DNA of 64,000 nt from Candidatus Sysuimicrobiota bacterium (GTDB taxonomy: Bacteria > Sysuimicrobiota > Sysuimicrobiia > Sysuimicrobiales > Sysuimicrobiaceae), in the NCBI GenBank assembly GCA_040289515.1, contig PSLI01000003.1, positions 10,459 through 74,458 on the forward strand, read 5' to 3'. The notes under the pieces are model-generated. The model searched no databases. It was given only the letters and a program-made list of their open reading frames with translations, and was not told where the DNA came from. The position numbers were made by a program, and so were the translations under genes. Below, in pieces: positions 5,875 through 58,634 of the stretch (position 1 is the first letter of the stretch; each line of letters starts with the position of its first letter).

Positions 5875-5929
5875 GGTGGGGCGCATCCTGGCGTGGGGCG
5901 TGCGCGGTCCCCCCCGGAGGGGCTCGGCC

Positions 5930-6211
5930 ATGGTGGTGGGGACGCTGCGGGTTACCCTCAGCCTCGACGGCGCACAGAGCCTCAAGGAGAAACGCAGGAT
6001 CGTCCAGAGCCTGGTCCGGCGGCTGCACAACGAGTTCCCGGTGTCCGTGTCCGAGGTGGCCGACCACGACGTGTGGACCCGCGCCACCCTGGGCGTGGCG
6101 TGTGTGACGAACGACGGGCGCCACGCGGACCGGGTCCTGGCCCAGGTGGTGCGCTACCTGGAGCGGGAGCGGGAGGCATACCTGGTGGACTATGAGGTGG
6201 AGATCCGCTGA
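5930..6211 (+). CDS. DUF503 (YlxP-like) protein
   Basis: MVVGTLRVTLSLDGAQSLKEKRRIVQSLVRRLHNEFPVSVSEVADHD... typical DUF503; sits after infB as ylxP does in Bacillus. Start taken at the internal ATG 5930 of ORF 5876..6211. Confidence 0.75.
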   Translation: MVVGTLRVTLSLDGAQSLKEKRRIVQSLVRRLHNEFPVSVSEVADHDVWTRATLGVACVTNDGRHADRVLAQVVRYLEREREAYLVDYEVEIR

Positions 6212-6252
6212 GGGGCCTGCTACCGGCCCCCGGCACGAGGACGGTGGTCACC

Positions 6253-6633
6253 ATGGCGTCGCCGCAGCGGGTGCAGAAACTCCGGGAGTTCATCCGGGAG
6301 GAGGTGAGCGACATCCTGCACCGCGGGGCCAAGGATCCGCGCATCGGGTTCGTCTCCGTGACGGACGTGGAGCTCAGCAGCGACCTGCGGCACGCGAAGG
6401 TGTACGTGAGCGTGCTGGGCTCCGAGGAAGAACGGGCCAGGACCATGGAGGCCCTGCAGCACGCCACGGGCTTCGTGCGCACGGAGCTAGCGAAGCGGAT
6501 GCGCACCTACCACACCCCCGAGATCCAGTTCCGCCTGGACACCTCCATCGAGCGGGGCACCCGGGTGCTCCAGCTGTTGCGCCAGATCAGCACGTCGCAG
6601 GGAGGAGGGCAGGGTGAGGGCAGCGGTGGCTAG
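6253..6633 (+). CDS. rbfA: Ribosome-binding factor A
   Basis: MASPQRVQKLREFIREEVSDILHRGAKDPRIGFVSVTDVELSSDLRHAKVYVSVLG... RbfA family; alternative GTG start at 6244. Confidence 0.9.
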   Translation: MASPQRVQKLREFIREEVSDILHRGAKDPRIGFVSVTDVELSSDLRHAKVYVSVLGSEEERARTMEALQHATGFVRTELAKRMRTYHTPEIQFRLDTSIERGTRVLQLLRQISTSQGGGQGEGSGG

Positions 6634-7585
6634 CGCCCTGCGGCTAGCCCGCCGGGTTCTGGTGGCCGGCCATGAGAGCCCGGACGGAGACTGCCTGGGA
6701 GGGAGCCTGGCCCTGGGTCTGGCGCTCGAGCGCATGGGCAAGAAGGTGGTGGTGGCAAGCACCGACGGCGTGCCCTCCACGTACCGGTTCCTCCCGGGCT
6801 GGGAGCGGGTCACGGACCGTGTGGAAGGACTCGGGACCTTCGACGTGGGCGTGGCGTTAGAATGCGCGGACCTGGAGCGGGCGGGCCGGTTCGCCCCCCT
6901 GCTGGCTGCCTGCCCGGTGCTGGTGAACCTGGATCACCACCGGGACAACACCGGCTACGGGCAGCTGGTCTGGCAGGAGCCGGAAGCAGCGTCCGTGTGC
7001 GAGATGGTGTACGGGCTGCTGGTGGAGCTGGGCGCGCAGGTGGACGAACCGGTGGCCACGTGCCTGATGACGGGGCTGGTGACCGACACGGGGTCCTTCC
7101 GCTACAGCTCCGTGCGCCCGGAGACCTTCGAGCTGGCCGCGGAGCTGCTCCGCCGCGGCGCCCGGCCGGACCGCATCTACGAGCGGGTGTACGAGGCCCG
7201 GCCCGCCCCGGCTTTGCGCTTGCTGGGGTTGGCCCTGTGGCGCCTGCAGCTGTCTTCGGACGGCCAGGTCGCCTGGACTGTGGTGGACCAAGCCATGCTG
7301 GATCAGGCGGGCGCCCGGTGGGAGGACACGGAGAACATCGTGGAGACCCTGCGTTCCATCGAGGGCGTCCGGCTGGCGCTGCTGTTCAAGGTGGAGCCCT
7401 CGCGGGTGAAGGTGAGCCTGCGGGCCCGGGACGGGGCCCGGGCCAACGCGGTAGCGGTGCGGTTCGGGGGTGGAGGCCACCTGGGTGCGGCGGGGTTCGT
7501 GGTGCAGGGGCCGCTGGAGGACGTCGTGCGGCAGGCGCTGCAGGCGGCCTCCGCGGAGGTGCACAGCGCCCCCGCCGGAGGGTAG
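6614..7585 (+). CDS. nrnA: DHH-family phosphoesterase (NrnA-like oligoribonuclease/pAp phosphatase)
   Basis: ...VLVAGHESPDGDCLGGSLALGLAL...DHH... with DHHA1-like C-terminus ...GGGGHLGAAGF; the rbfA-DHH-truB arrangement is common. Confidence 0.85.
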   Translation: MRAAVASALRLARRVLVAGHESPDGDCLGGSLALGLALERMGKKVVVASTDGVPSTYRFLPGWERVTDRVEGLGTFDVGVALECADLERAGRFAPLLAACPVLVNLDHHRDNTGYGQLVWQEPEAASVCEMVYGLLVELGAQVDEPVATCLMTGLVTDTGSFRYSSVRPETFELAAELLRRGARPDRIYERVYEARPAPALRLLGLALWRLQLSSDGQVAWTVVDQAMLDQAGARWEDTENIVETLRSIEGVRLALLFKVEPSRVKVSLRARDGARANAVAVRFGGGGHLGAAGFVVQGPLEDVVRQALQAASAEVHSAPAGG

Positions 7586-15873: not shown

Positions 15874-16065
15874 GCCTGCCTTCCTCCTATCTGAGCAAAC
15901 GCCGGTGCGGACCGTTTTGGCACGCGCAGGATCGGGGGTTTGGTTTTTCCCCCTGTTTGCGAACCCAAGTACGCCATCGGATAGAACAGCTCTTAGCTTC
16001 GAATCAGTGGAATCTGCAGGATGCTAGACTGGATCAAACGACTGATTAGAATAGATCTAGACATG

Positions 16066-16632
16066 GGGAGGCTTTTGGGCGAGGTGCGCAAGACGTTCGG
16101 GTTGCGGGTGCACGAGGCCCGCACGTCTGCGGGGCTATCCCAGCGGGAGCTGGCCCGCGCCCTGGGGCTGCGCAGCGCGGTGGGGGTGGGCGACTGGGAG
16201 CGGGGCAAGGCCTTCCCCAAGTTCGAGACGTTCCTGCGGCTGTGCGAGGTCCTCAACAGGCCGCCTGCCTTCTTCCTGGAGGGCTACACCGAGTCCCCCC
16301 GGGACGAGGACCCCCTGCAGGCCTTGGAGCGGCTGGAGCAGCGCATGCAGCAGCGCCACCTGGAGCTTCTGCACCGCCTGGAGCAGCTGCCCGCCGAGGT
16401 GAGCGGCTGCCTGCCCCCGGACGAGGTGGCGCGCTTTTTGGAGTCCATGGACTTCGAGAGGGACGTGCTGCCCCGGCTGCCCCTGGACGTGCAGGGTGCC
16501 CTGCGGGCCCAGAAGCTCCCCGCGTCCCTGGAGAACGCAGCTTACGGGATCGCCCGCAACGCCGCTTGGCACGCGTGGGAGGTCACCCGCGAGGTCGTGC
16601 GGACGTGGCTGCGCCGCCAGCGGCGCCCGTAG
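16066..16632 (+). CDS. XRE-family helix-turn-helix transcriptional regulator
   Basis: MGRLLGEVRKTFGLRVHEARTSAGLSQRELARALGLRSAVGVGDWERGKAFP... canonical HTH_3; the C-terminal ~120 aa have no recognisable domain. An alternative upstream ATG at 16021 lies in an unusually AT-rich stretch. Confidence 0.75.
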   Translation, partial: GRLLGEVRKTFGLRVHEARTSAGLSQRELARALGLRSAVGVGDWERGKAFPKFETFLRLCEVLNRPPAFFLEGYTESPRDEDPLQALERLEQRMQQRHLELLHRLEQLPAEVSGCLPPDEVARFLESMDFERDVLPRLPLDVQGALRAQKLPASLENAAYGIARNAAWHAWEVTREVVRTWLRRQRRP

Positions 16633-16954
16633 GGGAAGAAAAACGTCAACGGGAGCCGCCCCGAGTGACCTCTCGGCTTTCACCGGTTCGACCTCTCGGG
16701 ACCTTACTCCCGTTGACACCTTGATTATACGCGTCTGGCCGCGGCAGCGCAATGGGGAACAACGGTTCTTGGTACCGGTGCCAGGTACCCGCAGGCGCGA
16801 ACTCGCGGGGTCGGCCCCGGCGAGCCTCCCGGTGGCGGTGCGCCAGCTGCCCAGGGCAGAGGGGCCGGCACCTGAAAAATGCCCTTCCGGGTACGTCTAG
16901 CCAGGCGGTGGCTGGGGTATAAGTCCCGGTAGACGGGTTTACGGAAGGAGGTGG

Positions 16955-16970
16955 TGGCACAGGTCTTGCT
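16955..16970 (+). promoter_or_regulatory. Sigma-54 (RpoN/SigL)-type promoter TGGCAC-N5-TTGCT upstream of pilin gene
   Basis: TGGCACAGGTCTTGCT matches the -24 GG / -12 GC consensus TGGCACG-N4-TTGCW with exact spacing; about 63 nt upstream of the pilin ATG. Confidence 0.55.
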
Positions 16971-17032
16971 CTAGTTCATAAGGCCCGCGGCGCGGGAGGA
17001 CGTTCAAAGACTACTGTGGAGGAGGGAAAGCG

Positions 17033-17431
17033 ATGTTGGAACGGATCTGGAGGGCTCGCAGGGACCAGAGGGGCTTCACCCTCATCGAGCTCATCATGGT
17101 GCTGGTGATCCTGGGGATCCTGCTGGCGCTGGCGCTTCCTGCCTACCTGGGCACGCGGAGGAAGGCGTACCTGGCGGAGGCGGACCAGAACCTGCAGGAG
17201 ATGAAAACCCAGGCGTGGTTGTACTACGTGGAGAGGGGGACTTTTACCGGGGTAAGTGGCACAATCCAACCACCGGCTGCCACTGCAAACTGGAGTTTCG
17301 CCTGGGGCACCTGCGATGGTACTACGTCGTGCACAATGAGCGCGACCGGACAGGGGCCCGTTGCCGGTGCCTCGGTGACTCTGGTACTCTCCAACACCGG
17401 CTCTGCCACGGTCACGTCGAGCGGCTTTTAG
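17033..17431 (+). CDS. Type IV pilin (PilA-like), class III signal peptide
   Basis: MLERIWRARRDQRG|FTLIELIMVLVILGILLALALP: Gly-1, Phe+1, Glu+5 prepilin peptidase site and a hydrophobic N-terminal helix; GGAGGAGGG RBS. Confidence 0.85.
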   Translation: MLERIWRARRDQRGFTLIELIMVLVILGILLALALPAYLGTRRKAYLAEADQNLQEMKTQAWLYYVERGTFTGVSGTIQPPAATANWSFAWGTCDGTTSCTMSATGQGPVAGASVTLVLSNTGSATVTSSGF

Positions 17432-17455
17432 GCCGCGCGCTTGCTGCGGTACGCT

Positions 17456-17485
17456 CCGGGTGGCCGGCGCGGGCCGGCCACCCGG
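17456..17485 (+). terminator. Strong GC hairpin (13-bp perfect stem, 4-nt loop) 25 nt after the pilin stop
   Basis: CCGGGTGGCCGGC-GCGG-GCCGGCCACCCGG; no U-tract, which is common in high-GC genomes. Likely a terminator/attenuator between the pilin and the downstream glycosyltransferase genes. Confidence 0.45.
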
Positions 17486-17509
17486 AGCTCGACCGGGTTG
17501 AGGGCAGCT

Positions 17510-19012
17510 GTGCCCGTCCGCGGATGGTTTGTTGTTGCGGCCTTCCTTCTGGCAGGGTTGGCCCTGCGGGCGGAATCGCTTGCGGGCCGCGTGCTGTGGT
17601 ACGACGAGGTGTACAGCCTGTGGGTTTCCGAGCAGCCGGCAGCAGCCATCCTGCAGGCATCGGCTCTCTCAGACCCTCACCCGCCGGGCTACTACCTCTT
17701 GCTGAAGGCCTGGAGGAGGATTGTGGGGCCGACCCCTCCGGCCGCCCGGCTGCTTTCCTTGGTGGCGTGGCTTGGGTCTGTGGCCGTGGTCGCGTATCTT
17801 GCGGCCAAGATCTTCGGCTGGCCCGCGGGGGCGGGTGCGGCGTGCCTACTGAGCGTGCACGCTTTCCAGGTGATTGCCTCCACAGAAGCCCGTATGTACG
17901 CCCTGCTGCAGCTCGCCGCGGCGGTAGCTACCGCCCTGCTGTGGCGGGCCAGGGAGCAGGACCGACTGGGGCTCTGGGCCGCGTACGGCGCGAGCGCGGC
18001 TGCCATGGCCTACCTGAGCTATTACTCCGCGCTGCTGCTCCTGGCACACGGGCTGTGGGTGCTGGCCACACAGCCCGGCAGATCCTGGGCAGGCCCTGCG
18101 GTTGCGGTGGCCAGCGCGGTTGCCGCTTACGGCCCGTGGCTTCCTTTCCTGCCGGGCTCGGTTACCGCCAACACCGTGCCGTGGAGGCCGCCCCCGGACG
18201 CGGGGCTTGTCGCGGGGCTCCTGGCGAGCCAGGTGTACGGCGGCCACTGGCTTGGCGCTGCCGGCTACTATGGAAGCGGGGTCCTGCAGGCCTGGCAGTG
18301 GCTGGCCGGCCTAGCGCCCGTGACGCTGCTGGTACCCGGCTTTCTGGCTCTCCGACAGCGGAACGCACAGGCCGGCTTTCTGTTTACCCTGTGCTGGCTG
18401 GTGCCGGTGGGGGCGGCGGTGGCCGCCTCGTTTCTGGTGGGGAAAGTGGCCGCCTATGCCTACCACCTCACGTACGTGCAGCCCGTTGCGGCCGTCGCGG
18501 TGGCCGCCGGGGTGGCGGAAGTGTGGTCCCCGCGCGACCGATCACCCCGGTGCGTGACCCAAGTTCTAGCCGCCGTAGGGGTGTTGGTTTACGCAGCTTC
18601 AGCAGCCGACGGGGCCTGGCGGGATCTCCGCTACCAGCCCTTCCGGTACGACCTGGCGGCCGACTACCTGCGCAGCCTCCATCGGAAGCAGGACATGGTG
18701 CTGTACGTGCCCCAGGGTATGCGGCGGGTCATGCGCTACTACTTCGAGCCCACCGGGCGCGAAGTTCAGCTTGCGCTGCCCCTGGCTGCCTGGGGGCCCA
18801 AAGCGCACCAGGCGCGGCAGCGTTTCCGCGACGCCGTGGCCGCGGCGCTGCGGGCCAGCAGCCAACGTGTCTGGGTAGTGGCAAGCCCCCCATACCCGCC
18901 GTGGGTGCCCGAGATCATCGAGCAGGCGGCCGTGGAGAGCGGTTACCTGCCCGGCCCGGTAGCCCGCTTCGGGCATGTTACGGTAGGACTGCTCGTGCGC
19001 CGTGGTCGCTGA
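17510..19012 (+). CDS. GT-C superfamily membrane glycosyltransferase, PMT/ArnT-like (GT39/GT83-type, polyprenyl-phosphate-sugar dependent)
   Basis: Polytopic membrane protein with the first-loop motif ...RVLWYDEVYSLWVS... (the DE motif of PMT/ArnT-type enzymes), HPPGYYLLL, and a C-terminal soluble domain containing YRYDLAADY. Start GTG 17510 after a GAGGG RBS (alternative TTG 17498). Confidence 0.7.
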   Translation: MPVRGWFVVAAFLLAGLALRAESLAGRVLWYDEVYSLWVSEQPAAAILQASALSDPHPPGYYLLLKAWRRIVGPTPPAARLLSLVAWLGSVAVVAYLAAKIFGWPAGAGAACLLSVHAFQVIASTEARMYALLQLAAAVATALLWRAREQDRLGLWAAYGASAAAMAYLSYYSALLLLAHGLWVLATQPGRSWAGPAVAVASAVAAYGPWLPFLPGSVTANTVPWRPPPDAGLVAGLLASQVYGGHWLGAAGYYGSGVLQAWQWLAGLAPVTLLVPGFLALRQRNAQAGFLFTLCWLVPVGAAVAASFLVGKVAAYAYHLTYVQPVAAVAVAAGVAEVWSPRDRSPRCVTQVLAAVGVLVYAASAADGAWRDLRYQPFRYDLAADYLRSLHRKQDMVLYVPQGMRRVMRYYFEPTGREVQLALPLAAWGPKAHQARQRFRDAVAAALRASSQRVWVVASPPYPPWVPEIIEQAAVESGYLPGPVARFGHVTVGLLVRRGR

Positions 19013-19264
19013 CCCCGCGGACCGGGGGCGTTTTGCGCGGCTTCTGCCTCCACTCCATGTGTGGATCTTGGCGGGGCTCCTCCTGGCCGCCGCGGTGGTG
19101 CGTTTGGAACTGCTGGGCTGCGGGGGTACGCTGATTCGTTGTGGCGAGGTGGCACGAGAGGGTGCGAGAGGTGGATGGAGACCGGATGACGTAACTTAAC
19201 CCCAGGCACCCGGATGGCGGGTCCCCACCAAGGGAGCTGCGAACAGAGAGTCAGCTGGGGGAAG

Positions 19265-20386
19265 ATGCGGGTGAGGGTGTCAGCGGAAGTCAAATTGGTC
19301 GGTGCGTGGCTGGTCGCCACGCGAACGGTGCTCTGGGGAGTCGGACTGGTGTCGCGGGAGATCCTGCAGCCGTTCCTGCCGGTTCAGGAGCCAGGCGCGC
19401 CATTTACCACCAACCAGGCTCTCGCAGTATGGGGCCACTGGGACACGCGTTGGTACCTGGACATCGCTCGCCGGGGGTATTCGGCTGAGCCGATCCCGGA
19501 AACAGGCGAGGCGAACTACGCCTTCTTTCCGCTGTATCCACTGTTGGTGAGGGCGCTCGCGGTGTTCCTGGGGGATGTTTACCTCGCGGGCTTGATCGTG
19601 TCCAATGCTTCCCTGCTGGTCGCCGGGATCCTGCTCTACCGTCTGACGGCATTCGAGGACGACGAAGTGACCGCGCGCCGTGCCGTCAAATACCTGTTTT
19701 TGCTTCCTACGGCTTTCGTGTTTTCTGGCGTTCTGTCGGAGTCGCTGTTCGTGGCTGTGAGCGTGGGTGCGTTCTACGCAACGCGGAGAAACCGGTGGTG
19801 GCTAGCGGGGCTGCTGGGAGGGTGCGCTGCCTTGAGCCGCCCCCAAGGGGTGCTGCTCATTCTCCCACTCGCGTGGCTGTGCTTCGCAGATCGGGACCGG
19901 CGACAGCGGTGGTTAGACTACTTGCCCCCGCTGGTTTTGGTGCCGGCAGGCTTGGCAGGTTGGGTGGCGTACACGTGGAGCCTTACAGGCGATCCCCTGG
20001 CCTTCGTAAACGTGCAGCGAGCGTGGCGGAAGGTGCCATCGAACCCCGCAGAGGTCCTGGTGCAGGGCCTGCTTGCGCATGCTCCTCAGCTGCGTGTGGG
20101 AGCGTGGTTTGGGGCGGTCGCACGGGCGCTCGCGTTTTCTTTCTGGAGGCTGTTGGGTTTTCCGTACTTCCTGGTCTGCCTTGCCGCTGTGTTGCCAGCC
20201 CTGAGCAGCGGATGGACGTCGCTGTACAGCACCCCACGGTACGTTGCAAGCGCTTGGCCGCTCGCGATTCTGTTCGCCAAGCTGGGGAGACGGGGAGAGG
20301 TGGACGGGGTGGCTGCGGCTTCCTTGGCGCTTCTTCAGGGCTTTTTGATGGTTTTTTGGAGCAACGGCTCACGCATGGTGATGTGA
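19265..20386 (+). CDS. PIG-V/GPI-mannosyltransferase-2-like membrane glycosyltransferase
   Basis: ...AVWGHWDTRWYLDIARRGYS... matches the signature W-D-x2-W/F-Y-L-x-I-A-x2-G-Y of PIG-V-type mannosyltransferases; about 8 TM segments; GGGGGAAG RBS before ATG 19265. Confidence 0.65.
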   Translation: MRVRVSAEVKLVGAWLVATRTVLWGVGLVSREILQPFLPVQEPGAPFTTNQALAVWGHWDTRWYLDIARRGYSAEPIPETGEANYAFFPLYPLLVRALAVFLGDVYLAGLIVSNASLLVAGILLYRLTAFEDDEVTARRAVKYLFLLPTAFVFSGVLSESLFVAVSVGAFYATRRNRWWLAGLLGGCAALSRPQGVLLILPLAWLCFADRDRRQRWLDYLPPLVLVPAGLAGWVAYTWSLTGDPLAFVNVQRAWRKVPSNPAEVLVQGLLAHAPQLRVGAWFGAVARALAFSFWRLLGFPYFLVCLAAVLPALSSGWTSLYSTPRYVASAWPLAILFAKLGRRGEVDGVAAASLALLQGFLMVFWSNGSRMVM

Positions 20387-20406
20387 GTCTTGCAAGAGGA
20401 CGGGCT

Positions 20407-21951
20407 GTGGAGTGCCGGCTGGCGAAGCAGGCGCTGAAAGAGCGGGGCCGGTGGTACCTGGAACCGGTACCAGGTACCGTCCTGTGGGGGCTGGCGTTGC
20501 TGGCCGTCCTGGCGGTAGCCGCAGCAGTCCGCTGGGAGCTGCTGGCCACCCGCAGCTTGTGGTACGACGAAGGCTACAGCCTGTTTGTGGCCCGTATGGG
20601 CGGGCGGCAGATCCTGCAGTTCCTCAAGGCCAACGACGCGCACCCCGCAGGCTACTACGTCCTCCTCTCCTTCTGGATTCAGCGCTTCGGCGAGGGGCTT
20701 CTGGTTGCTCGGCTGCCGTCCTTCGTATTCGGGGTGGCCGCGGTGGCTCTCACGTGGTTGGTGGCAAGCCGCCTGCACGGGCCCGCTTCAGCCGCGGTCG
20801 CCGCGCTGCTCGTGGCAATTCACCCGTTCCAGGTGATGGCGTCCAACGAGCTGCGGATGTACTCGCTGCTGACGGTGCTGGTGCTTGCCGCCGTTCTTGC
20901 CGCGGTGCGGGCCATCCGGGGAGGGGACAGTTGGGCGCTGCTGCTGGGCGTGCTGTGGGCTGCGGTGGGGTACACGAGCTACTACGGGCTGCTGGCCGTG
21001 GTCGGGATGGCTGCCGCGCTGTGGACGGGCGGCCACCGAAAAGTCGCGGGCCTCGCGGCGGCTACAGGGCTGGCCCTGTACCTTCCATGGCTCCCGTACC
21101 TGGCGGGGTTCTGGCGTGCCAACCCGCAGCTGTGGACGCGGGAGACGCTGTGGTGGGGGTATCCGGTGGAACTACTCGCCGCGCAGGCCTTCGGAGGGTA
21201 CTGGCCGGACACGTTCACGTACCACACGTCCTTCCGGGGCTCCGTGTTCCTGTATGTCCCGCTGCTCGTTCCCTACGGGCTGTTTGCCGCGGCAACGGTG
21301 GCACTGGCGGGCCGCGAACGCTCCGAGGGGCTGCGGCTGGTGCGGTGGACCTGGATGACGGCTTTCGTGGCGATCCTGGGGTTGTCCCTGGCGATGGGCT
21401 GGGCCGCTGCTTACCCCCGGCACCTGACTTTCCTGCAGCCGCTGGCGGCGTGCTGGGTGGCCGTGGGGCTGGTGGAACTCAGCCGGGCGTTGCGGCTGCG
21501 GTCCCGGGCGGCGGGGTTGGGGGTGCTGTGGCTTTTGAGCCTGCAGGGTCCTGCGCTGGTGGCCATGCAATCCGACCCCCGGTACCAAAGCTACCGGTAC
21601 GACCTGGCGGCCCGGTTCGTGCAGTCGGCCTTCCGCGCCGGGGACGCGGTGGTGTACGTCCCGGGCGGCACCTCTCTGGCGTTCGAGTACTACTTCCGTC
21701 CGCCGGGCCCGCGGGTGGAAGTGCGGATCCAGCCGCGCCCGTACCGCCCGGAGGAGTGGCGCCCGCGGTTCGACAGGGGGCTGCGGGCTCTGGTAGGGCA
21801 GGTACAGCGGGTGTGGACGGTGACCACGGCGCCCGCGCCCCCCGCAGCGGAGGCGGCGCTGAAGGAGGCGCTGGGGGCACGGGGCTATCGGGTGGTAGGC
21901 GAGCGCGCGTTCCCCGGCCTGAAGGTGAGCCTCGCCGTGCGCGCGCGCTAG
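20407..21951 (+). CDS. GT-C superfamily membrane glycosyltransferase, PMT/ArnT-like (paralog of 17510..19012)
   Basis: ...RSLWYDEGYSLFVA..., HPAGYYVLL, SYRYDLAARF: the same motif set and order as the upstream paralog; AGAGGA RBS 6 nt before GTG 20407. Confidence 0.7.
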   Translation: MECRLAKQALKERGRWYLEPVPGTVLWGLALLAVLAVAAAVRWELLATRSLWYDEGYSLFVARMGGRQILQFLKANDAHPAGYYVLLSFWIQRFGEGLLVARLPSFVFGVAAVALTWLVASRLHGPASAAVAALLVAIHPFQVMASNELRMYSLLTVLVLAAVLAAVRAIRGGDSWALLLGVLWAAVGYTSYYGLLAVVGMAAALWTGGHRKVAGLAAATGLALYLPWLPYLAGFWRANPQLWTRETLWWGYPVELLAAQAFGGYWPDTFTYHTSFRGSVFLYVPLLVPYGLFAAATVALAGRERSEGLRLVRWTWMTAFVAILGLSLAMGWAAAYPRHLTFLQPLAACWVAVGLVELSRALRLRSRAAGLGVLWLLSLQGPALVAMQSDPRYQSYRYDLAARFVQSAFRAGDAVVYVPGGTSLAFEYYFRPPGPRVEVRIQPRPYRPEEWRPRFDRGLRALVGQVQRVWTVTTAPAPPAAEAALKEALGARGYRVVGERAFPGLKVSLAVRAR

Positions 21952-22025
21952 GGCCGCCCCAACGGTACCGAGAACCGGAGTTGACAAAATGGCTAAACCA
22001 ACTAGGCTGAAAACTGGCGGACCAA

Positions 22026-22230
22026 GTGGGGAAGATTGTGAACGTGCACGGGGAGAAAGCGCGTTTGCCGGGGCGGGGAGGAGATCGTAATCGCCAAGCG
22101 CGGGAAGCCCTACGCGAGTGTGGTGCCGGCAGGCGAAGACCGGGTGCTGCGGAGCTTTCTGCGGTTACGCGTCCCGAACACATTTGTCGGGACCCTTGTC
22201 GAGCGAGGAGCTAGATCGTCTAGTCTGGTA
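22026..22230 (+). pseudogene. Degraded (frameshifted) Phd/YefM-type type II antitoxin remnant in a lower-GC patch
   Basis: Frame 1: MGKIVNVHGEKARLPG... ; frame 2 continues ...GEEIVIAKRGKPYASVVPAGEDRVL..., together resembling K-x-V-S-V-x-EAKA-x-L...GEEVVIT-RRGKPVA-LVP of Phd/YefM antitoxins; a frame switch falls near 22065-22080; no toxin gene follows. Confidence 0.35.
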
Positions 22231-22421
22231 GCAAACGCATCATGGTGGTTGCTCTCGACCACCCCAGAACAGGTCGGTGGTTGTTGTAGAGCTCCGGGTA
22301 GCGGTCGAGGGGGGCCTGCAGGCGCGGGAGGCGGGTGAAGAACCGGCGGCTACTGTTAACTTAACGCAACAATTCCGAAGCAGTTCAGCCCCAGGCGGGG
22401 AGAAACGCGACCCGGGAGGTG

Positions 22422-23780
22422 ATGGCGGTGGACCACAGGCGATGGGTGGCGGCGGTCGGGCTGGCGGCGTTCGTGCTGCTGGCGCTGGCTCCGGCGCAGG
22501 CCCAGCGAACCGTGACGCTGGTAGCCTGGACCGTTGGGCCGGATAACCCGTCGGTGACTCGCTTCACTAACCTGCAGGCGGCGGTCGAGCGCCTGAACAG
22601 GGACCTGCAACGAGAGGGGGCGGGGGTTCAGGTCAAGCTGGAGGGGTTCTTCGATACGACCGAGTGGGACCCGTACCTGCGGCGGGTGCTGCTGGCGTTC
22701 CAGAGCGGGAACCCACCCGATCTCGTGCAGGCGTCCCACCCGCTTACCGCCACCTGGGCGGCCGCGGGATTCATCACGGCCCTCGACGACCTCATTCCCC
22801 GGTACCGCCAGTTCGCCGACGTGGTGGAGTCCCTGTGGGACGCGGTGCGGTATCGGGGAAAGATCTGGGGCATTCCGCAGGACACCGAAGCGCGCCCGCT
22901 GTACTTCAACAAGACCCTGCTGAAGCAACTCGGGTGGACCGACCACCAGATCGCCTCCCTGCCCGAACGGATCACCAAGGGCGAGTTCACCTGGGAGGAC
23001 GTGCTGACCACCGCCCGGGAGGCCGTGCAGAAGAAGGTGGTGGAATCCGGCAAAGGCTACTACCACCGGCCGCGCCCGGGTCCGGACTTCCTTCAGTGGT
23101 ACCGGTCTTTCGGCGGTCGGGATTTTGACGCCGGCAGCGGCAAGCTGGTCTTCACTCGGGAAGCGGCGCTGCGGTACTTCCGCTGGCTGCGGGCGGCGGT
23201 GGACGCCAGCGTGCTGGAGCGGAACCGCCTCGACGGTGATTGGAGCCGCTTCCACCAGACCGTCACCGACGGCAAGGTCCTGTTCTTCTCCGGCGGCACG
23301 TGGAACTGGGCGGAGTGGGAGCAGCAGTGGGTGGCCGGCAAGGGCGGCCAGGACTGGCTGTTCGCCAACTTCGGCTTTGCCCCGCACCCGACCTGGCGGC
23401 GGGGAGGCCGGCCGATCACCCTGTCCCAGCCCCAGGCCTACATGATTTCGGCGGCGTCCAAGAACAAGCCCCTCGCGATGCGCCTGCTGGCCTACACCAC
23501 GGTGCCGGACCTGGACGCCAAGCATGCCGTGGGCAGCGCGCACCTCCCGGTGCTGCGCACCACGGCCCGGTTGATCAGGGACCGCTTCCTCCGGGAAGTG
23601 AGCTACCTGCTCACCTACACGACGTTCCAGCCGCCGCATCCGGACCTACCGCGGTGGCAGGACGCCCTCTTCCGGGGAGTGTCGGCGGTGGAGGCCGGCC
23701 AGGTCACACCCGAACAGGCCGTGGACCTGGTGGCAGCTGAGATGCAGCGCGCCATCGGGGATAAGGTCGTCATCGAGTAG
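22422..23780 (+). CDS. ABC transporter periplasmic substrate-binding protein (family 1; UgpB-like)
   Basis: Signal peptide AVGLAAFVLLALAPAQA, then a family-1 solute-binding fold; first gene of a B-A-E-C-Q arrangement identical to ugpBAECQ. Confidence 0.8.
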   Translation: MAVDHRRWVAAVGLAAFVLLALAPAQAQRTVTLVAWTVGPDNPSVTRFTNLQAAVERLNRDLQREGAGVQVKLEGFFDTTEWDPYLRRVLLAFQSGNPPDLVQASHPLTATWAAAGFITALDDLIPRYRQFADVVESLWDAVRYRGKIWGIPQDTEARPLYFNKTLLKQLGWTDHQIASLPERITKGEFTWEDVLTTAREAVQKKVVESGKGYYHRPRPGPDFLQWYRSFGGRDFDAGSGKLVFTREAALRYFRWLRAAVDASVLERNRLDGDWSRFHQTVTDGKVLFFSGGTWNWAEWEQQWVAGKGGQDWLFANFGFAPHPTWRRGGRPITLSQPQAYMISAASKNKPLAMRLLAYTTVPDLDAKHAVGSAHLPVLRTTARLIRDRFLREVSYLLTYTTFQPPHPDLPRWQDALFRGVSAVEAGQVTPEQAVDLVAAEMQRAIGDKVVIE

Positions 23781-23838
23781 AGGGTGCGGCGGGCGCAGGC
23801 GGCTGCGCTGCCTGCGCCCGCCCAAGCCTGGCGACGTC

Positions 23839-24819
23839 ATGGGAGAACCGGAGCGGGTCGCCGGGAGAATGCAGGTACAGGCCCGGCTTGCCAGGGAAGC
23901 GACCATCGGGCGGGCCCGGACGTGGGCGCGGCGCCATCTGACGCCGGCGGCGTTCCTGGCTCCGGCCACCATCCTGATCGTGCTGTTCTTCCTGGTGCCC
24001 GTGGTGGCCACGCTGCTGCTGTCCCTCACCGATATCTCCACCGTCACCTTCCGCGCCCCCCGGTGGGTGGGGCTGGAGAACTACCGCTACCTCTTCCGGG
24101 ATCCCTTTCTCCCCAGGATCCTGCTGAACACCGCTCGGTACGTGGGGCTCACGCTGCTGTTTAACGTGGGGATGGGGCTGACCCTGGCCCTGCTGAGCAC
24201 GTCCGTACGCCCGGGGTACGGCAATCAGGTCCGCGCCCTGTGGCTGCTACCCCGCATCATGCCGCCGGTGGTGTACGTGCTGGTGTGGCAGGGTCTCACC
24301 CGCGAGGCTCCCTACGGGCTGGTGGGGATCCTTACCGGCAGCTCGCGCAGCTGGATTACCGAACATCCGTGGACGACCATCGTGCTGGCCAACGGCATGG
24401 TGGGGGCGTCTTTCGGGATGCTGATCTTCACCTCGGCGATCCGCTCGATGTCGCCCGAGTTGTTCTACGCGGCGGCGGTGGATGGCGCCACCACCTGGCA
24501 GACGGTCCGACGGGTGGTTCTACCCTTGCTACGCTGGCCGATCCTGTTCGTCACGGCCTACCAGACCCTCTCGCTGCTCACCTCCTTTGAGTACATCCTC
24601 CTGCTGACCGACGGCGGACCGGGGTTCTTCACCACCACGGTCTGGTCGCTGCACGCCTACAAGCTGGCCCTGTCCAACTACTACGGCAACGTGCAATTCG
24701 GCCTGGGGGCGGCGATGGCCGCGGTTTTGGTGGTGATCGGCGTGGTGGTCTCTGTTTTGTACCTGCGCATCTTCAACTTCCGGGCGCTGATCGGCGAGCC
24801 AAAGATCGAGGTACCGTGA
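23839..24819 (+). CDS. ABC transporter permease (UgpA/MalF-like)
   Basis: 6-TM permease with EAA-type loop ...AAVDGATTWQTVRRVVLPLL...; start may instead be ATG 23869. Confidence 0.8.
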   Translation: MGEPERVAGRMQVQARLAREATIGRARTWARRHLTPAAFLAPATILIVLFFLVPVVATLLLSLTDISTVTFRAPRWVGLENYRYLFRDPFLPRILLNTARYVGLTLLFNVGMGLTLALLSTSVRPGYGNQVRALWLLPRIMPPVVYVLVWQGLTREAPYGLVGILTGSSRSWITEHPWTTIVLANGMVGASFGMLIFTSAIRSMSPELFYAAAVDGATTWQTVRRVVLPLLRWPILFVTAYQTLSLLTSFEYILLLTDGGPGFFTTTVWSLHAYKLALSNYYGNVQFGLGAAMAAVLVVIGVVVSVLYLRIFNFRALIGEPKIEVP

Positions 24820-25643
24820 TGCCGCTGCTCCCGCCCCGGTGGCGCTTGCTCGTGCTGGTGCTGGCCGTGCTGACCCTGCCCATCGTCACCGGGGTGCTGT
24901 GGCTGCTGCTCACGGGATGGTTCGACGTGGTCCATGGGTTGCTGCCCGTCGGCGGGGGGTCGTTGGAGAACTGGCGCTTTCTGTGGACATCGGTGGGCGG
25001 CCGGCCCCCCCTGCGGATCCCCTTGATGAACTCCTTGATCTTCGCCGGCGTGGTGGCGACCCTGGAGGTGGTGATCGCGTCCATGGCCGGCTACGCCATC
25101 GCCCGCATGGCGTTTCCCGGGCGCCGGGGATTGCTGGGGCTGGTTCTGGTCCTGCACGCGTTTCCCGCGGTCAGCCTGCTGATCGCCATCTTCTACATTC
25201 TGCGGATTCTCGGGCTGTTTGATACCTTGCTGGGTGTGATCCTGGTGAAGGTCGCCCTGGAGCTGCCCCTGGGGATCTGGTTGATGAAGGGATTCTTTGA
25301 CTACCTGTCCTGGGAAATCGAGATGGCGGCGCTGGTGGACGGCATGTCCCGGTGGGGGGTGTTCTGGAGAATCGCCCTGCCCATGGCCCGGCCAGGCTTG
25401 CTAGCCTTGGGCACGTTTGCGCTGCTGTCGGCGTGGGGAGAGTTCATCTTGCCCTTCACGCTGATCGTCTCCAGCCAACGGTGGACCATGGCCATGTACA
25501 TGCAGAGCTTCTTGAGTGAGGCGTTCACCGACTTTGGAATGATGGCCGCGGTGGGCCTGGTGTATGCGGCGCCGGTCCTGATCCTGTTCGCTCTGGGTCA
25601 GCGCTACTTGCTGAACATTTACACGGGAGGCGTGAAAGGGTGA
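24816..25643 (+). CDS. ABC transporter permease (UgpE/MalG-like)
   Basis: ...EMAALVDGMSRWGVFWRIALPMARPGL... EAA motif; 4-nt overlap with the upstream permease. Confidence 0.8.
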   Translation: MMPLLPPRWRLLVLVLAVLTLPIVTGVLWLLLTGWFDVVHGLLPVGGGSLENWRFLWTSVGGRPPLRIPLMNSLIFAGVVATLEVVIASMAGYAIARMAFPGRRGLLGLVLVLHAFPAVSLLIAIFYILRILGLFDTLLGVILVKVALELPLGIWLMKGFFDYLSWEIEMAALVDGMSRWGVFWRIALPMARPGLLALGTFALLSAWGEFILPFTLIVSSQRWTMAMYMQSFLSEAFTDFGMMAAVGLVYAAPVLILFALGQRYLLNIYTGGVKG

Positions 25644-26686
25644 GGGGAATCCGGGTTCGTCTGGAGCGGCTGAGCAAGCGTTTTGGCCACGTGGTGGCCG
25701 TCCAGGCACTGGATCTGGAGGTGGCGCCGGGCGAGTTGCTGGCGCTCTTGGGACCGTCGGGATGCGGTAAGAGCACCACGTTGCTGATGATCGCCGGTAT
25801 TTACCAGCCCACCGCCGGTGCCATCTACTTCGGGGAGCGGCGGGTGGACCACCTTCCCCCCCGGGACCGCGACGTAGGGATGGTCTTCCAATCCTACGCC
25901 CTGTATCCCCACCTGACCCTTTTCGAGAACATCGCGTTCCCTCTGCGGCTGAAGCGGCGTTCTTCCGTTGAGGTCACCAGGGTGGTGCGCCGCACAGCGG
26001 AGCTCCTGGGGATCGCGCCGGTGCTAGACCGGTATCCGGCCCAGGTGTCCGGCGGCCAGCAACAGCGAGCGGCTCTGGCCCGGGCGCTGGTGAAGGAGCC
26101 ACAGGTGTTGCTGCTGGACGAGCCGTTGTCGAACCTGGATGCTCAGATCCGGGTGCAAGCCCGGGGAGAGATCCGTCGGCTCCAGCAGGAGCTGGGCATA
26201 ACCACCATGCTGGTCACCCACGATCAGGCCGAGGCGCTGGCCATGGCCGACCGGGTGGCGGTGTTCTCCATGGGCCAACTGCTGCAGGTGGCCACGCCTG
26301 ACGAACTGTACCGGCGGCCAGCCAACACCTTCGTGGCCCGGTTTGTCGGCCACCCACCCATGAACGTGTTGGAGGGCACCTTCACCGACGGGCAGTTCGT
26401 CGCTGGGTCGCTGCGGTTTCCGCTGCTGGTGGCGGCGCCCCCGGGCCCGGGATACCTGGGCATCCGTCCCGAGGACGCCCACCTGCGGGGTTCCATCCCT
26501 GGCCGTGTCGTGGTGGTGGAGTCTCAGGGGCGCCACGCCCTGGTGACCGTGGACGTCGGGGGGGTCGAGCTGAAGGTGCTGGTGGATCAGGGCGACCGCC
26601 CGGCGGTGGGAGCACAGGTCGGGGTGGGAGTGGAGCCCCCCGCCGTCCACCTGTTCGACATGTCCGGAGTACGCATCGAACCGTAG
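25640..26686 (+). CDS. ABC transporter ATP-binding protein (UgpC/MalK-like)
   Basis: Walker A GPSGCGKST, signature LSGGQQQR, Walker B LLLDEPLS, plus a C-terminal TOBE-like regulatory domain. Confidence 0.9.
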   Translation: MRGIRVRLERLSKRFGHVVAVQALDLEVAPGELLALLGPSGCGKSTTLLMIAGIYQPTAGAIYFGERRVDHLPPRDRDVGMVFQSYALYPHLTLFENIAFPLRLKRRSSVEVTRVVRRTAELLGIAPVLDRYPAQVSGGQQQRAALARALVKEPQVLLLDEPLSNLDAQIRVQARGEIRRLQQELGITTMLVTHDQAEALAMADRVAVFSMGQLLQVATPDELYRRPANTFVARFVGHPPMNVLEGTFTDGQFVAGSLRFPLLVAAPPGPGYLGIRPEDAHLRGSIPGRVVVVESQGRHALVTVDVGGVELKVLVDQGDRPAVGAQVGVGVEPPAVHLFDMSGVRIEP

Positions 26687-26751
26687 GAGGTGGCGGCGAT
26701 GGGTACGGGGAACGCGGTGCCCAAACGGTACCGTACCGGCTCAGGTGGCTG

Positions 26752-27048
26752 CTGGAGGAGAACCTGGACGGGCTGACCCGCACCGAGATCTTCGGTCCCG
26801 TGCGGACCCTGGTCCGTGTGTGGACGGTGGGGGAGGCCGTCGCGGTAGTGGAACGCACCGGCTACAGGCACACGGCCAACGTGGGCATCCAGGTCGGGGG
26901 GGCAGCCCTCATGACCTTCTTCTCGTGTGCCGGGTGGGAGGAGAGCGTCCTTGGCGACCTGCACGGGCAGGAGCGCGGCGCGATGGAGTTCTATACCGAA
27001 AAGAAGGTGGCCGTGGAGGCTTGGCCCGAGTCCTGGGCCCGTCGGTGA
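26752..27048 (+). pseudogene. 3' remnant (~98 codons) of an aldehyde dehydrogenase gene
   Basis: ...LEENLDGLTRTEIFGPVRTLVRVWTVGEAVAVVERTGY...SVLGDLHGQERGAMEFYTEKKVAV... matches the ALDH C-terminus (EEIFGPV...; ...FGG-K-SG-GRE-G...YTE-K-V); no N-terminal 380 residues and no start. The frame runs open back into ugpC. Confidence 0.6.
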
Positions 27049-27050
27049 CC

Positions 27051-27980
27051 GTGGCTCCCGCCCTGCCCGCAAACCTGACGTATGCTGGTCGCCAGGTGAC
27101 CCTTAAGTACCACAAGCTGCTGTCCGGCCTGGGACGCCACCCCCCCAACAGCCTCGCAGCGTTACGGGAGGTGCTGGACGGCGGCGCGGCCGCCATCGAG
27201 TTCGACATCCAGCCTTTGGCCGACGGCGACTACGCGCTGCTGCATGATGGCCGCTTGGAGAGCGAGACGACCGGATTCGGAGCCGTGGACAGGACCGTTA
27301 CCCGTGCGCTGAAGGCGCTACGCCTGCGCGGGTCGGACGAGCCGCCGACCACCCTGTCCGAGGTCGCGGCGGTCCTGGCGAGCCACCGGGCGCCGCTGAA
27401 GGTCCAGGTGGACTGCAAGGAGCAGCGACCATGGTCGGAGGCGGACGCGCGGCGCCTGCTGAAGGCCCTCGAGCCGATCCGCCGCAACCCCCATCTCCGG
27501 GTGGTAGTCGGATGTTTAGCGGACTGGAACCTGCGCCTGTTACGCCGCCTGGACCCCACGGTGGTGGTCGGGCTGGATTTCATGCTGTACCTGGACAGCC
27601 CGGTGGACGATGCGATCCGGCTCCCCACTCGGGTGAACGCGTACGGCTACCTGGATGACCACCCCGTGGGCTACCGCCGCGCCCTGCCGGTGGCCGACTA
27701 CCTGGCCGACCGGGTGGAGAGCCTCAGCATGATGGTGGCTGGGGCCGAGGAGTTCTACCTGAGAAAGGAGTTCATCCTCCAGGCGCTCGGGGACGGGTTC
27801 AATCCCGTGGTATTCCTGCGGGAGCGCCTGGGCCGGCCGGTGGTGATCGACGCATGGACGGTAAATGCCCATCACCCCGGCGCCCGGGACGAGCTGGAGG
27901 CGGTGCTGCGGGCGGGGGTGGACCAGATCACCACCGACACGGCCACTGCGCTCGCAGCGCTGGCGGAGGGCCTGGGATGA
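27051..27980 (+). CDS. Glycerophosphodiester phosphodiesterase family protein (UgpQ-like)
   Basis: ...YHKLLSGLGRHPPNSLAALREVLDGGAAAIEFDIQPLADGDYALLHDGRLESETTGFGAV... GDPD fold motifs (H-R/K..., E-x-D, HD); GTG 27051 two codons after the ALDH-remnant stop. Confidence 0.7.
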   Translation: MAPALPANLTYAGRQVTLKYHKLLSGLGRHPPNSLAALREVLDGGAAAIEFDIQPLADGDYALLHDGRLESETTGFGAVDRTVTRALKALRLRGSDEPPTTLSEVAAVLASHRAPLKVQVDCKEQRPWSEADARRLLKALEPIRRNPHLRVVVGCLADWNLRLLRRLDPTVVVGLDFMLYLDSPVDDAIRLPTRVNAYGYLDDHPVGYRRALPVADYLADRVESLSMMVAGAEEFYLRKEFILQALGDGFNPVVFLRERLGRPVVIDAWTVNAHHPGARDELEAVLRAGVDQITTDTATALAALAEGLG

Positions 27981-57303: not shown

Positions 57304-57309
57304 ACCGCC

Positions 57310-57324
57310 GGCACAGGAGCTGCT
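57310..57324 (+). promoter_or_regulatory. Sigma-54-like element GGCAC-N5-CTGCT before the second pilin gene
   Basis: cGGCACaggagCTGCT keeps the -24 GG/-12 GC spacing; weaker match than the 16955 element. It lies 6 nt after the pilC stop, so an internal promoter is uncertain. Confidence 0.3.
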
Positions 57325-57367
57325 AAAACTGCGGTATAGAAAAACAGCCGGAAAGGAGGAACGAACC

Positions 57368-57742
57368 GTGCGATACGTGAGGGGCGAATGGGGCATGACG
57401 CTGGTGGAGCTGCTGGTGGTGATCCTCATCCTGGGGATCCTGGCGGCCGTAGCGCTGCCCAACTACTTTGGGGCGGAGAACGACGCGCGCGTGTCGGTGG
57501 ACAAAGCCAATGTCCAGGCGATCAACACCGCGCTTGCGCTGTACCGGTTTCGGAATAACGGGAGGTGTCCCGGCCAGACCGGTCAGCCTACATTCCAGCA
57601 GTTTCTGGACGACACAACGTACTTCCCGGACGGGGCGCCCACCGACCCCATCGACGGGACGAGCACGCTGCCGGGGGACCCTGGCTACACCGACTACCCG
57701 GCCGATTACAACGCAACCAACTGCCGCCTGACCCGGGACTAG
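57368..57742 (+). CDS. Type IV pilin / major pseudopilin (ComGC/PilA-like)
   Basis: VRYVRGEWG|MTLVELLVVILILGILAAVALPNY: class III signal peptide with Gly-1 and Glu+5; 124 aa. Confidence 0.85.
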   Translation: MRYVRGEWGMTLVELLVVILILGILAAVALPNYFGAENDARVSVDKANVQAINTALALYRFRNNGRCPGQTGQPTFQQFLDDTTYFPDGAPTDPIDGTSTLPGDPGYTDYPADYNATNCRLTRD

Positions 57743-57766
57743 CTGCGTGACCCGGCAACCGAAGAG

Positions 57767-58213: not shown

Positions 58214-58229
58214 AGCACAGAGGACGGCG

Positions 58230-58631: not shown

Positions 58632-58634
58632 GCG

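Follow-up and report, generated by a model that had tools for sequence, protein, structure and literature searches.

Pilin-specific O-glycosylating enzymes are typically encoded beside their pilin (PMC12645811; bioRxiv 10.1101/2020.04.19.049825). TfpW, which acts on group IV pilins of Pseudomonas aeruginosa (PA7/Pa5196), is a GT-C glycosyltransferase encoded directly 3' of the pilin gene whose product it modifies; the structural template nearest to it is ArnT. It attaches O-linked sugars at several Ser/Thr residues, and its donor is a lipid-phosphate monosaccharide supplied by separate genes, which in some species are clustered with pilA-tfpW (bioRxiv 10.1101/2020.04.19.049825). Here we analyzed a 64-kb stretch of DNA (contig PSLI01000003.1; hereafter the window) in which the gene for a type IV pilin is followed by a hairpin and by three co-oriented genes coding for polytopic glycosyltransferases (GT-C1, GT-C2, and GT-C3), all found where the initial annotation of the window had placed them. 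With a probability that we put at roughly 0.6, this locus serves a CSP1-3/GAL15 (Sysuimicrobiota) bacterium as a pilin-specific cassette for extracytoplasmic O-glycosylation. This reading is built on the gene identities and folds, on a conserved acidic motif, and on a conserved linkage of pilin and GT-C genes, all of them established in the following sections. To our knowledge, pilin glycosylation has been known mainly from Proteobacteria, in the form of en-bloc O-oligosaccharyltransferases and of a single GT-C example, TfpW.

TfpW is the closest known system, and the locus was compared with its published description. As in the Pseudomonas arrangement, GT-C1 is co-oriented with the pilin gene and lies 78 nucleotides (nt) 3' of it, this arrangement is conserved in relatives, and the GT-C1 model is ArnT-like. 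The cassette differs from the single TfpW enzyme in having two to three GT-Cs, the two core paralogs of which usually appear translationally coupled. Unlike TfpW, whose C-terminal periplasmic domain is of the TPR type and whose periplasmic loop 1 contains DDX, GT-C1 ends in an alpha/beta domain of 125 amino acids (aa) with no TPR match in Pfam, and it carries Y-D-E. The donor gene linked to the cassette in relatives codes for a DPM1/ArnC-like GT2, whereas TfpW depends on a DprE1/DprE2 pathway for D-arabinofuranose (D-Araf); no DprE1/DprE2-like gene was seen among the annotated genes of the window or of the relatives' clusters. The host, in contrast to that of TfpW, belongs to an uncultivated non-proteobacterial phylum.

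The PMT family (GT39) of actinobacteria and eukaryotes shares with the enzymes of the locus the GT-C fold and a D-E motif in loop 1. With Ppm1/Dpm1, PMTs transfer sugar from polyprenyl- or dolichyl-phosphate to protein Ser/Thr at the outer membrane face, the donor coming from a DPM1-type GT2, and the same logic is proposed here. Eukaryotic PMTs act as paralog pairs (Pmt1-Pmt2, as PDB entry titles also have it). In contrast to PMT/GT39 proteins, GT-C1 and GT-C3 matched the broad PMT_2 model alone, and the fold of GT-C1 was nearer to ArnT than to Pmt4. Moreover, PMTs are general enzymes for Sec substrates and are not genetically tied to one substrate, unlike the cassette. The actinobacterial PMT/Ppm1 system is a good mechanistic analogy, but membership of the same family fails.

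In three-component systems (GtrA/GtrB/GT-C), a GT2 loads sugar onto polyprenyl phosphate, and after flipping of the product a GT-C carries out the transfer outside (Mann and Whitfield, 2016; PMC11127046). The relatives likewise have GT2 and GT-C together, but three-component systems are known to act on glycans, such as O-antigens and teichoic acids, rather than on a pilin. The pilin-specific O-oligosaccharyltransferases TfpO/PilO, TfpM, PglS, and PglL are encoded beside their pilin substrate, and TfpO and TfpM target a C-terminal residue (PMC12645811); beside this, the pilin family described here has a conserved Ser-rich C-terminus, TSSGF. Those enzymes are of the Wzy_C type and transfer undecaprenyl-diphosphate-linked oligosaccharides en bloc, and so differ from the GT-Cs in protein family and in type of donor; they share with the cassette only the principle of an enzyme encoded beside the pilin. 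Ogt of Synechococcus, considered at first as a PMT_2 pilin glycosyltransferase, was discarded as a parallel: it belongs to GT41, acts in the cytoplasm, and contains TPR repeats (PMC9306852).

The pilin and its linkage to GT-C genes

The pilin gene (17033-17431, + strand) codes for a prepilin of 132 aa that scored 40.3 bits with the Pfam model N_methyl and 36.6 bits with TIGR02532 (cut-off 16.3). The prepilin motif is RG/FTLIELIMVL (the slash marks the cleavage site). As expected of a class III signal peptide, the leader MLERIWRARRDQRG is cut before FTLIE, and the cleavage region reads ...RRDQRG/FTLIELIMVLVILGILLALALP. The mature pilin has 118 aa, with a globular domain rich in S/T and TSSGF at its C-terminus. 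In the AlphaFold2 model (predicted local distance difference test, pLDDT, 89.5), the long helix alpha1 (residues 17-68) is followed by an antiparallel sheet of four strands (87-91, 99-106, 114-120, and 125-130). The best match of this model among PDB structures in Foldseek was the Shewanella type IV pilin 4d40, a weak one (E 0.013), and matches to Pilin domains of Pfam fell below threshold. More than 90 orthologs were found, with identities of 55-98%. An exact-sequence look-up of the window pilin returned no record, and the relative with 98% identity was found through homology search.

S and T together make up 32% of the globular part of the window pilin and, on average, 29% of that of the family (47 orthologs), vs. 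8.7% in the housekeeping proteins of the window. S/T columns 84, 105, 114, 116, 124, 126, and 128-130 are conserved, as is the C-terminal TSSGF. Such a conserved S/T-rich domain would be compatible with O-glycosylation at multiple sites.

The linkage between pilin and GT-C genes was surveyed from both sides. On the GT-C side, with one genome per species, 79 loci were all scanned for prepilin motifs, and the close loci were mapped by tblastn. Ten of the 13 distinct loci of the lineage (L007, L008, L009, L011, L012, L014, L015, L016, L046, and L059) had a prepilin gene within ~2 kb of the GT-C gene and usually adjacent to it; in L013, the GT-C gene directly follows pilB-pilT-pilC. No prepilin motif was found within 8 kb at ~60 distant PMT_2 homologues from Chloroflexota, Saccharibacteria, haloarchaea, and Bifidobacterium. 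On the pilin side, five orthologs with 55-77% identity on long contigs were inspected, and four of them (L089, L092, L093, and L094) were followed by two PMT_2 genes. Judged by gene content, the conserved core of the locus is the pilin and two PMT_2 paralogs, GT-C1 and GT-C3.

The adjacency holds down to 55% identity of the pilin and ~30% identity of the GT-C. It occurs in five flanking contexts: an XRE regulator and ugp genes (window and L093), IclR-aconitase (L007), LA_3751-like genes (L009), groEL/Mo-oxidoreductase (L089 and L094), and a sulfatase-like gene (L092). These differing contexts indicated that the cassette behaves, and travels, as a unit. In more distant members, the gene order is pilB-pilT-pilC, one or two pilin genes, one to three GT-C genes, and a GT2 gene (L008, L012, L015, and L016), and in L015 the two kinds of gene alternate (pilin-GT-C-pilin-GT-C). 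Neighbor-joining trees showed that, in genomes with two pilins, each pilin type has a GT-C clade of its own 3' of it; for the 152-aa type, the GT-Cs that follow are in every case of clade C (L008, L014, and L015). The functional tie between pilin and GT-C genes that the initial annotation had read from gene order was reinforced by these comparisons, since the adjacency is kept through the lineage, in several contexts and inside pilBTC clusters. That annotation had also considered that, in relatives, the glycosyltransferase genes might never be linked to pilins; the opposite was seen.

Related pilins in relatives lie directly 3' of pilB-pilT-pilC, and the pilB and pilC genes of the window (54382-57303) sit in a separate cluster with a GspG-like pseudopilin gene. 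Neither pilT nor pilD was identified in the 64-kb window. The number of pilin copies varies while the GT-C pair is kept: L089 has three tandem pilin paralogs (6152-7393) 5' of two GT-C genes, and L012 and L046 have two tandem pilins.

The GT-C enzymes and their proposed lipid-linked donor

GT-C1 (17510-19012, + strand) and GT-C3 (20407-21951, + strand) matched the Pfam model PMT_2 with 40 and 40.5 bits, respectively, vs. a cut-off of 26.1. GT-C3 is a full-length paralog of GT-C1, with 34% identity and the WYDE motif kept. In GT-C1, this motif (W-Y-D32-E33) comes directly after the first transmembrane helix (TM1), and D32 and E33 are invariant in 18 sequences including GT-C3; a DPHPPGYY block is also invariant across 18 members of the GT-C family. 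Among the GT-Cs, structure modeling was applied to GT-C1, while GT-C3 was assigned by full-length paralogy and GT-C2 by its Pfam match. The AlphaFold2 model of GT-C1 (pLDDT 87.5) showed ~11 TM helices and a C-terminal alpha/beta domain (residues 375-500) that is extracytoplasmic in the model. Its top PDB match in Foldseek was ArnT (5f15; E 3e-8, TM-score 0.63), followed by ALG12, STT3, AftA, PglB, and AglB, with Pmt4 at rank 28; compared as a profile with PDB sequences, the GT-C1 family gave no match at E <= 1. From the model, GT-C1 can be confidently predicted to have the GT-C fold of the ArnT/STT3/PglB/AglB/Aft/PMT class. The model and a positive-inside N-terminus would place the D-E motif on the extracytoplasmic side. 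The invariance of this motif and of other catalytic-face residues in all paralogs argues for active enzymes.

In the hidden Markov model (HMM) searches, PF13231 (PMT_2) alone was matched: PMT (PF02366), MIR, and PMT_4TMC gave no match at E <= 0.1, and the NCBIfam model for mannosyltransferase MT1671 gave 17-18 bits vs. a cut-off of 900. Since only this broad model was matched, an assignment to GT39/PMT was rejected, and the GT-Cs should not be filed as GT39. The families proposed initially, PMT_2 for GT-C1 and GT-C3 and a PIG-V-like protein for GT-C2, held in these searches. The "O-mannosyl" character proposed with them was not supported: the PMT/GT39, MIR, and PMT_4TMC models were unmatched, the nearest fold was that of ArnT, and the GT2 of relatives is about as similar to DPMS as to PpgS and ArnC.

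Of the five relatives L007, L089, L092, L093, and L094, four have the two PMT_2 genes overlapping by 4 nt, which suggests translational coupling and possibly a heteromer. The window departs from this arrangement in having GT-C2 (19265-20386, + strand) between the two paralogs. This polytopic, PIG-V/Mannosyl_trans2-like glycosyltransferase scored 32.3 bits with PF04188 (cut-off 22.4), covering positions 52-202 of the 443 of the profile, and it also matched the NCBIfam model AZOBR_p60025, described as "cell surface glycopolymer formation", with an E of 1.5e-12, a match that falls short of the cut-off of that model. Its start was set at the ATG at 19265, which is preceded by a G-rich Shine-Dalgarno (SD)-like sequence; the ATG at 19214 is not. 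W56, D60, and Y64 are invariant in 26 homologues, D60 being part of W-G-H-W-D. GT-C2 was not found in the syntenic locus L093 (XRE-pilin-GT-C1-GT-C3) or in the other pilin modules examined. Its family is widespread in other phyla, and homologues in the lineage adjoin PMT_2 or LA_3751-like GT-Cs in L086 and L088. By its distribution, GT-C2 is best described as a lineage-specific insertion between the two PMT_2 paralogs, outside the conserved module. The actinobacterial scheme used earlier as an analogy, in which a PMT starts and a PIG-V/GT87 enzyme extends the glycan, thus rests on an insertion that is missing from relatives, L093 included.

A 65-aa open reading frame (ORF; 19002-19199, + strand) overlaps the stop codon of GT-C1. 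For its residues 12-39, the best match in each relative fell on TM1 at the N-terminus of the second GT-C, right where the two GT-C genes join; the single matches are all weak (E 0.014 in L094 and 0.010 in L009; weaker still in L092, L093, and L007), but they agree in position. This ORF is probably a relic of the 5' end of the ancestral coupled second GT-C gene, left behind when GT-C2 came in. The 250-nt spacer between GT-C1 and GT-C2 is otherwise non-coding. In the pilin/GT-C clusters of L009, L088, L092, L093, and L003/L008 (3418-5196 and 8117-9877), putative polytopic glycosyltransferases of the LA_3751/LA_3752 family are found (586-592 aa, with a FWSPDS motif after TM1 and no Pfam match). 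The presence of such proteins in relatives in the place of GT-C2 suggests that the slot for an accessory third glycosyltransferase is variable.

A GT2 of 250 aa (in L003, for example, encoded at 5193-5945) closes the cluster in relatives. Its PDB matches were the Pyrococcus Dol-P-Man synthase 5mlz (4.7e-26), ArnC, and GtrB, and its NCBIfam matches were the PpgS, ArnC, Dol-P-hexose transferase, and AglJ models, so that by similarity it resembles a synthase of the polyprenyl-phosphate sugar type. Its presence in the clusters completes a GT2 plus GT-C logic of extracytoplasmic glycosylation and does not reveal the sugar. Neither tblastn (E 1e-5) nor an HMM of the relatives' GT2 (E <= 10) found a GT2 in the 64-kb window, which agrees with the initial view that the donor is made elsewhere. 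No GtrA-like flippase was identified, although no search was aimed at GtrA.

The following mechanism is proposed for the cassette. The prepilin would be anchored in the cytoplasmic membrane and expose its Ser/Thr-rich globular domain on the outside, where GT-C1 and GT-C3, perhaps as a heteromer, would move single sugars from a polyprenyl-phosphate sugar to Ser/Thr residues of the pilin. GT-C2, gained in this lineage alone, might add a sugar or extend the glycan. The lipid-linked donor would come from a DPM1/ArnC/PpgS-like GT2, encoded in the cluster in relatives and outside the window here, and a type IV pilus machine whose genes lie elsewhere would then assemble the modified pilin. A more speculative version, which we consider possible but rather doubtful, is that the coupled PMT_2 pair works as a heteromer in protein O-glycosylation, as the bacterial equivalent of Pmt1-Pmt2, and builds glycans sugar by sugar on the pilin from polyprenyl-phosphate monosaccharides. 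In that version, each pilin type would have its cognate GT-C, and extra GT-Cs (PIG-V-like or LA_3751-like) would be swapped in for glycan diversity.

Other explanations and significance

Several points weigh against an O-glycosylation cassette. Three of the 13 GT-C loci of the lineage (L010, L013, and L017) have no pilin on the available contig, and the pilin ortholog of L090 has no adjoining GT-C gene. The loci come from related organisms, so the counts are not of independent events. PMT_2-family GT-Cs often modify lipids or glycans rather than proteins, and beta-rich surface proteins are often S/T-rich, so that S/T content is no proof of glycosylation. The L003/L008 cluster runs on into genes for a Wzm/Wzt ABC transporter, a methyltransferase, and further glycosyltransferases, which would fit a surface polysaccharide. 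A donor synthase was not found in the window, nor was a flippase, at which no search was aimed. Finally, the organism is uncultivated, and the cassette is known as a set of genes and predicted structures.

Some of these points would be accounted for if the GT-Cs decorated an envelope glycan or lipid (an O-antigen-like polymer, an S-layer glycan, or lipid A) in the manner of ArnT or of GtrB/GT-C three-component systems, the proximity of the pilin reflecting clustered and co-regulated genes for surface structures. ArnT, the best structural match, is indeed a lipid A modifying enzyme, although TfpW is likewise ArnT-like and yet glycosylates a pilin; arn, Ara4N, and lipid A genes are all absent. 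The exporter and methyltransferase genes of L003/L008, accompanied by LA_3751-like putative glycosyltransferases, would agree with an envelope role, as would the GT2 that accompanies the GT-C gene in the pilin-less contigs of L010 and L017. In contrast, no polysaccharide genes lie near the pilin and GT-C genes in the window, L007, L089, L092, L093, and L094. The sub-threshold glycopolymer match of GT-C2 and the wide occurrence of its homologues, in phyla and loci without a pilin link, would again favor an envelope role. Against an envelope role stand the alternation of pilin and GT-C genes in L015, the pairing of pilin clades with GT-C clades, and the shifting of the module between contexts as one unit. 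On this balance, we regard decoration of an envelope glycan or lipid as unlikely, albeit the most serious competitor of a pilin-directed function.

It is improbable that the pilin-like protein, instead of being a pilus subunit that receives sugars, partners the GT-Cs as a pseudopilin or accessory protein, or that the GT-Cs are non-enzymatic chaperones or assembly factors of the pilin, similar to TfpY/TfpZ. Such roles would agree with the distance of 37 kb between the window pilin and the sole pilB/pilC genes, with the lack of pilT in the window, and with the sub-threshold matches to Pilin domains; non-enzymatic accessory genes 3' of pilA are described for Pseudomonas (PMC11841053). They are at odds with the acidic D-E motif and the catalytic-face residues invariant in all paralogs, with the polyprenyl-phosphate sugar synthase co-clustered in relatives, and with the position of the relatives' pilins immediately 3' of pilB-pilT-pilC, where a major pilin is usually encoded. 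A synteny inherited in one lineage without functional meaning is already disfavored and has very little left to recommend it: all positives do come from a single candidate phylum and include several syntenic pairs (window/L093 and L089/L094), but the adjacency occurs in five differing contexts and persists at 55% pilin and ~30% GT-C identity, paralogous pilin/GT-C pairs are matched within genomes, and the GT-C genes appear translationally coupled in four of five relatives.

In the open literature, to which the search was confined, nothing was found that links PMT_2/GT39-type or polyprenyl-dependent GT-C enzymes to pilins in such a system, and a term search of published genomic descriptions of the phylum found no mention of pili, pilin, pilus, or motility (PMC11604079, PMC11962464). 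Because the pilin and transferase cassette recurs across the CSP1-3/GAL15 phylum, it probably represents a new variant of pilin glycosylation. The locus points to an independent solution, in which a conserved pilin, paired PMT_2 GT-Cs, and a DPM1-like GT2 are combined across a phylum that has not been cultivated and that abounds in hot springs and deep soil. If an O-glycosylation cassette is the right reading, it would give a function, with a defined candidate substrate, to part of the large and mostly uncharacterized PMT_2 family. It would also make available a compact system of protein glycosylation whose acceptor is defined, useful for glycoengineering and perhaps thermostable, and the matching of each pilin type to a modifying enzyme of its own, seen in the Pseudomonas pilin groups, would be a general evolutionary pattern. 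If, in addition, the PMT_2 pair were heteromeric, this would be a third, mechanistically distinct route of pilin glycosylation beside en-bloc O-oligosaccharyltransferases and TfpW, and the first substrate-dedicated PMT-like protein glycosyltransferase.

Promoter-like elements, hairpin, and gene neighborhood

A sigma-54-type -24/-12 element, TGGCAC-aggtc-TTGCTC, precedes the pilin gene, with the leader block GAAGGAGGTGG 5' of it (16944-16971 for both, + strand). The exact TGGCAC-N5-TTGC (16955-16969), with the consensus sequence and spacing of sigma-54 promoters, lies 64 nt 5' of the pilin ATG and is the sole exact match in the 64-kb window (0.18 expected by chance). TGGCA(C/T)-N5-TTGC, with a variable spacer, was also found 5' of the orthologous pilins in L007, L009, L089, L092, L093, and L094. 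It was not found in L090, whose pilin has no neighboring GT-Cs, or at the more distant pilins inspected. The regulator adjoining the locus is an XRE-type helix-turn-helix protein and not an enhancer-binding protein.

A second promoter-like element, GTCTAG-N14-GGGTATA (16895-16921, + strand), lies further 5'. Its two blocks, as GTCT(A/G)N-N14-GGG(C/T)A with constant spacing, occur 100-170 nt 5' of most of the lineage pilin genes inspected (L008, L009, L011, L012, L014, L015, L046, L090, L093, and L094, found again in the last three by pattern scan), with some weak copies, as in L007 and at the first pilin of L012; in the window, there is one match vs. 0.30 expected. The form GTCTAG-N14-GGG(C/T)ATA resembles what we take to be the promoters of SigB/SigF group-3 sigma factors. 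This two-block element is conserved more widely than the sigma-54 element. The initial annotation had described a near-consensus sigma-54 promoter, which proved to be an exact match conserved in seven orthologous loci, and had overlooked the two-block promoter.

The SD-like block GAAGGAGGTGG (16944-16954) is invariant directly 5' of the sigma-54-like element, ~80 nt before the pilin start, and is kept at equivalent positions in L007, L009, L089, L092, L093, and L094. It could be a leader-RNA element (for example, an SD-like site that stabilizes the mRNA) or part of a tiny leader ORF. A leader-RNA role is possible for the sigma-54 element as well, since it is joined to a conserved GGAGGTG and comes ~32 nt 3' of the -10 block of the promoter with the wider conservation.

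The 78-nt spacer between pilin and GT-C1 contains a G+C-rich hairpin (17453-17488, + strand) with a perfect stem of 16 bp, a 4-nt loop, and no U tract; its fold has a z of -4.8, and none of 200 shuffles folded as well. Hairpins of other sequence occupy the same position after the pilin stop codon in L007, L009, L012, and L015. No sigma-70-like promoter was found in a scan of 16600-22500, and so none between the pilin and the GT-C genes. The hairpin is probably a leaky terminator or an mRNA stabilizer. Together with the lack of an internal promoter in that scan, it would fit the production of much pilin transcript and, by read-through, of little enzyme transcript. In the proposed cassette, the pilin gene would thus be strongly transcribed from the SigB/SigF-like and/or the sigma-54 promoter, and the hairpin would let only part of the transcripts pass into the glycosyltransferase genes.

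The window has 70% G+C. Its gene order starts with nusA, infB, a DHH-family gene, truB, rpsO, pnp, an M16 peptidase gene, dapB, and asd, after which come the XRE-type regulator (16021-16632) and the pilin/GT-C locus; farther 3' are secE-nusG and COX genes, and large ORFs are presumably rpoB/rpoC and fusA/tuf. The closest homologues of GT-C1 and of the pilin came from metagenome-assembled genomes (MAGs) labeled Armatimonadota, candidate division GAL15, Armatimonadetes bacterium CSP1-3, Bacillati bacterium ANGP1, and Candidatus Fervidifonticultor, the pilin with 98% identity being from a candidate division GAL15 MAG. GAL15 is the SILVA name for candidate phylum CSP1-3 (PMC11962464), now named Sysuimicrobiota, a phylum that takes in Fervidifonticultor (PMC11604079). 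The "Firmicute-type" label first given to the pilus was accordingly dropped: a Firmicute origin was rejected on the strength of these CSP1-3/GAL15 homologues, despite the Firmicute-like housekeeping order nusA-infB-rbfA-truB-rpsO-pnp-M16-dapB-asd.

A second type IV filament cluster (54382-60257, + strand) contains pilB, with an MshEN domain and a cyclic di-GMP-binding motif (54382-56115), pilC (56116-57303), a GspG-like pseudopilin gene (57350-57742), and three prepilin-like genes (57767-58213, 58191-58631, and 58635-60257), all on the + strand, with no pilT present. This cluster may or may not assemble the pilin encoded at 17033.

Genes for a ugpB/A/E/C-like ABC transporter and a GDPD phosphodiesterase (22419-27980) lie 3' of the GT-C genes of the window. 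A similar ugp/GDPD group follows the GT-Cs in L086 (2729-10598), with glpP-like and glycerol-kinase-like genes in addition; the shared neighborhood is probably plain synteny. An ORF at 22026-22214, in the 467-nt spacer between GT-C3 and ugpB, was rejected as a gene: in another frame this spacer reads ...GEEIVIAKRGKPYASVVP..., which resembles a degraded antitoxin fragment. At 22060-22230 (+ strand, frame of 22081), it reads ...GEEIVIAKRGKPYASVVPAGEDRVL..., with stop codons breaking the frame upstream. This stretch resembles what is left of an antitoxin of the Phd/YefM type, which hints at a past insertion or rearrangement at this junction.

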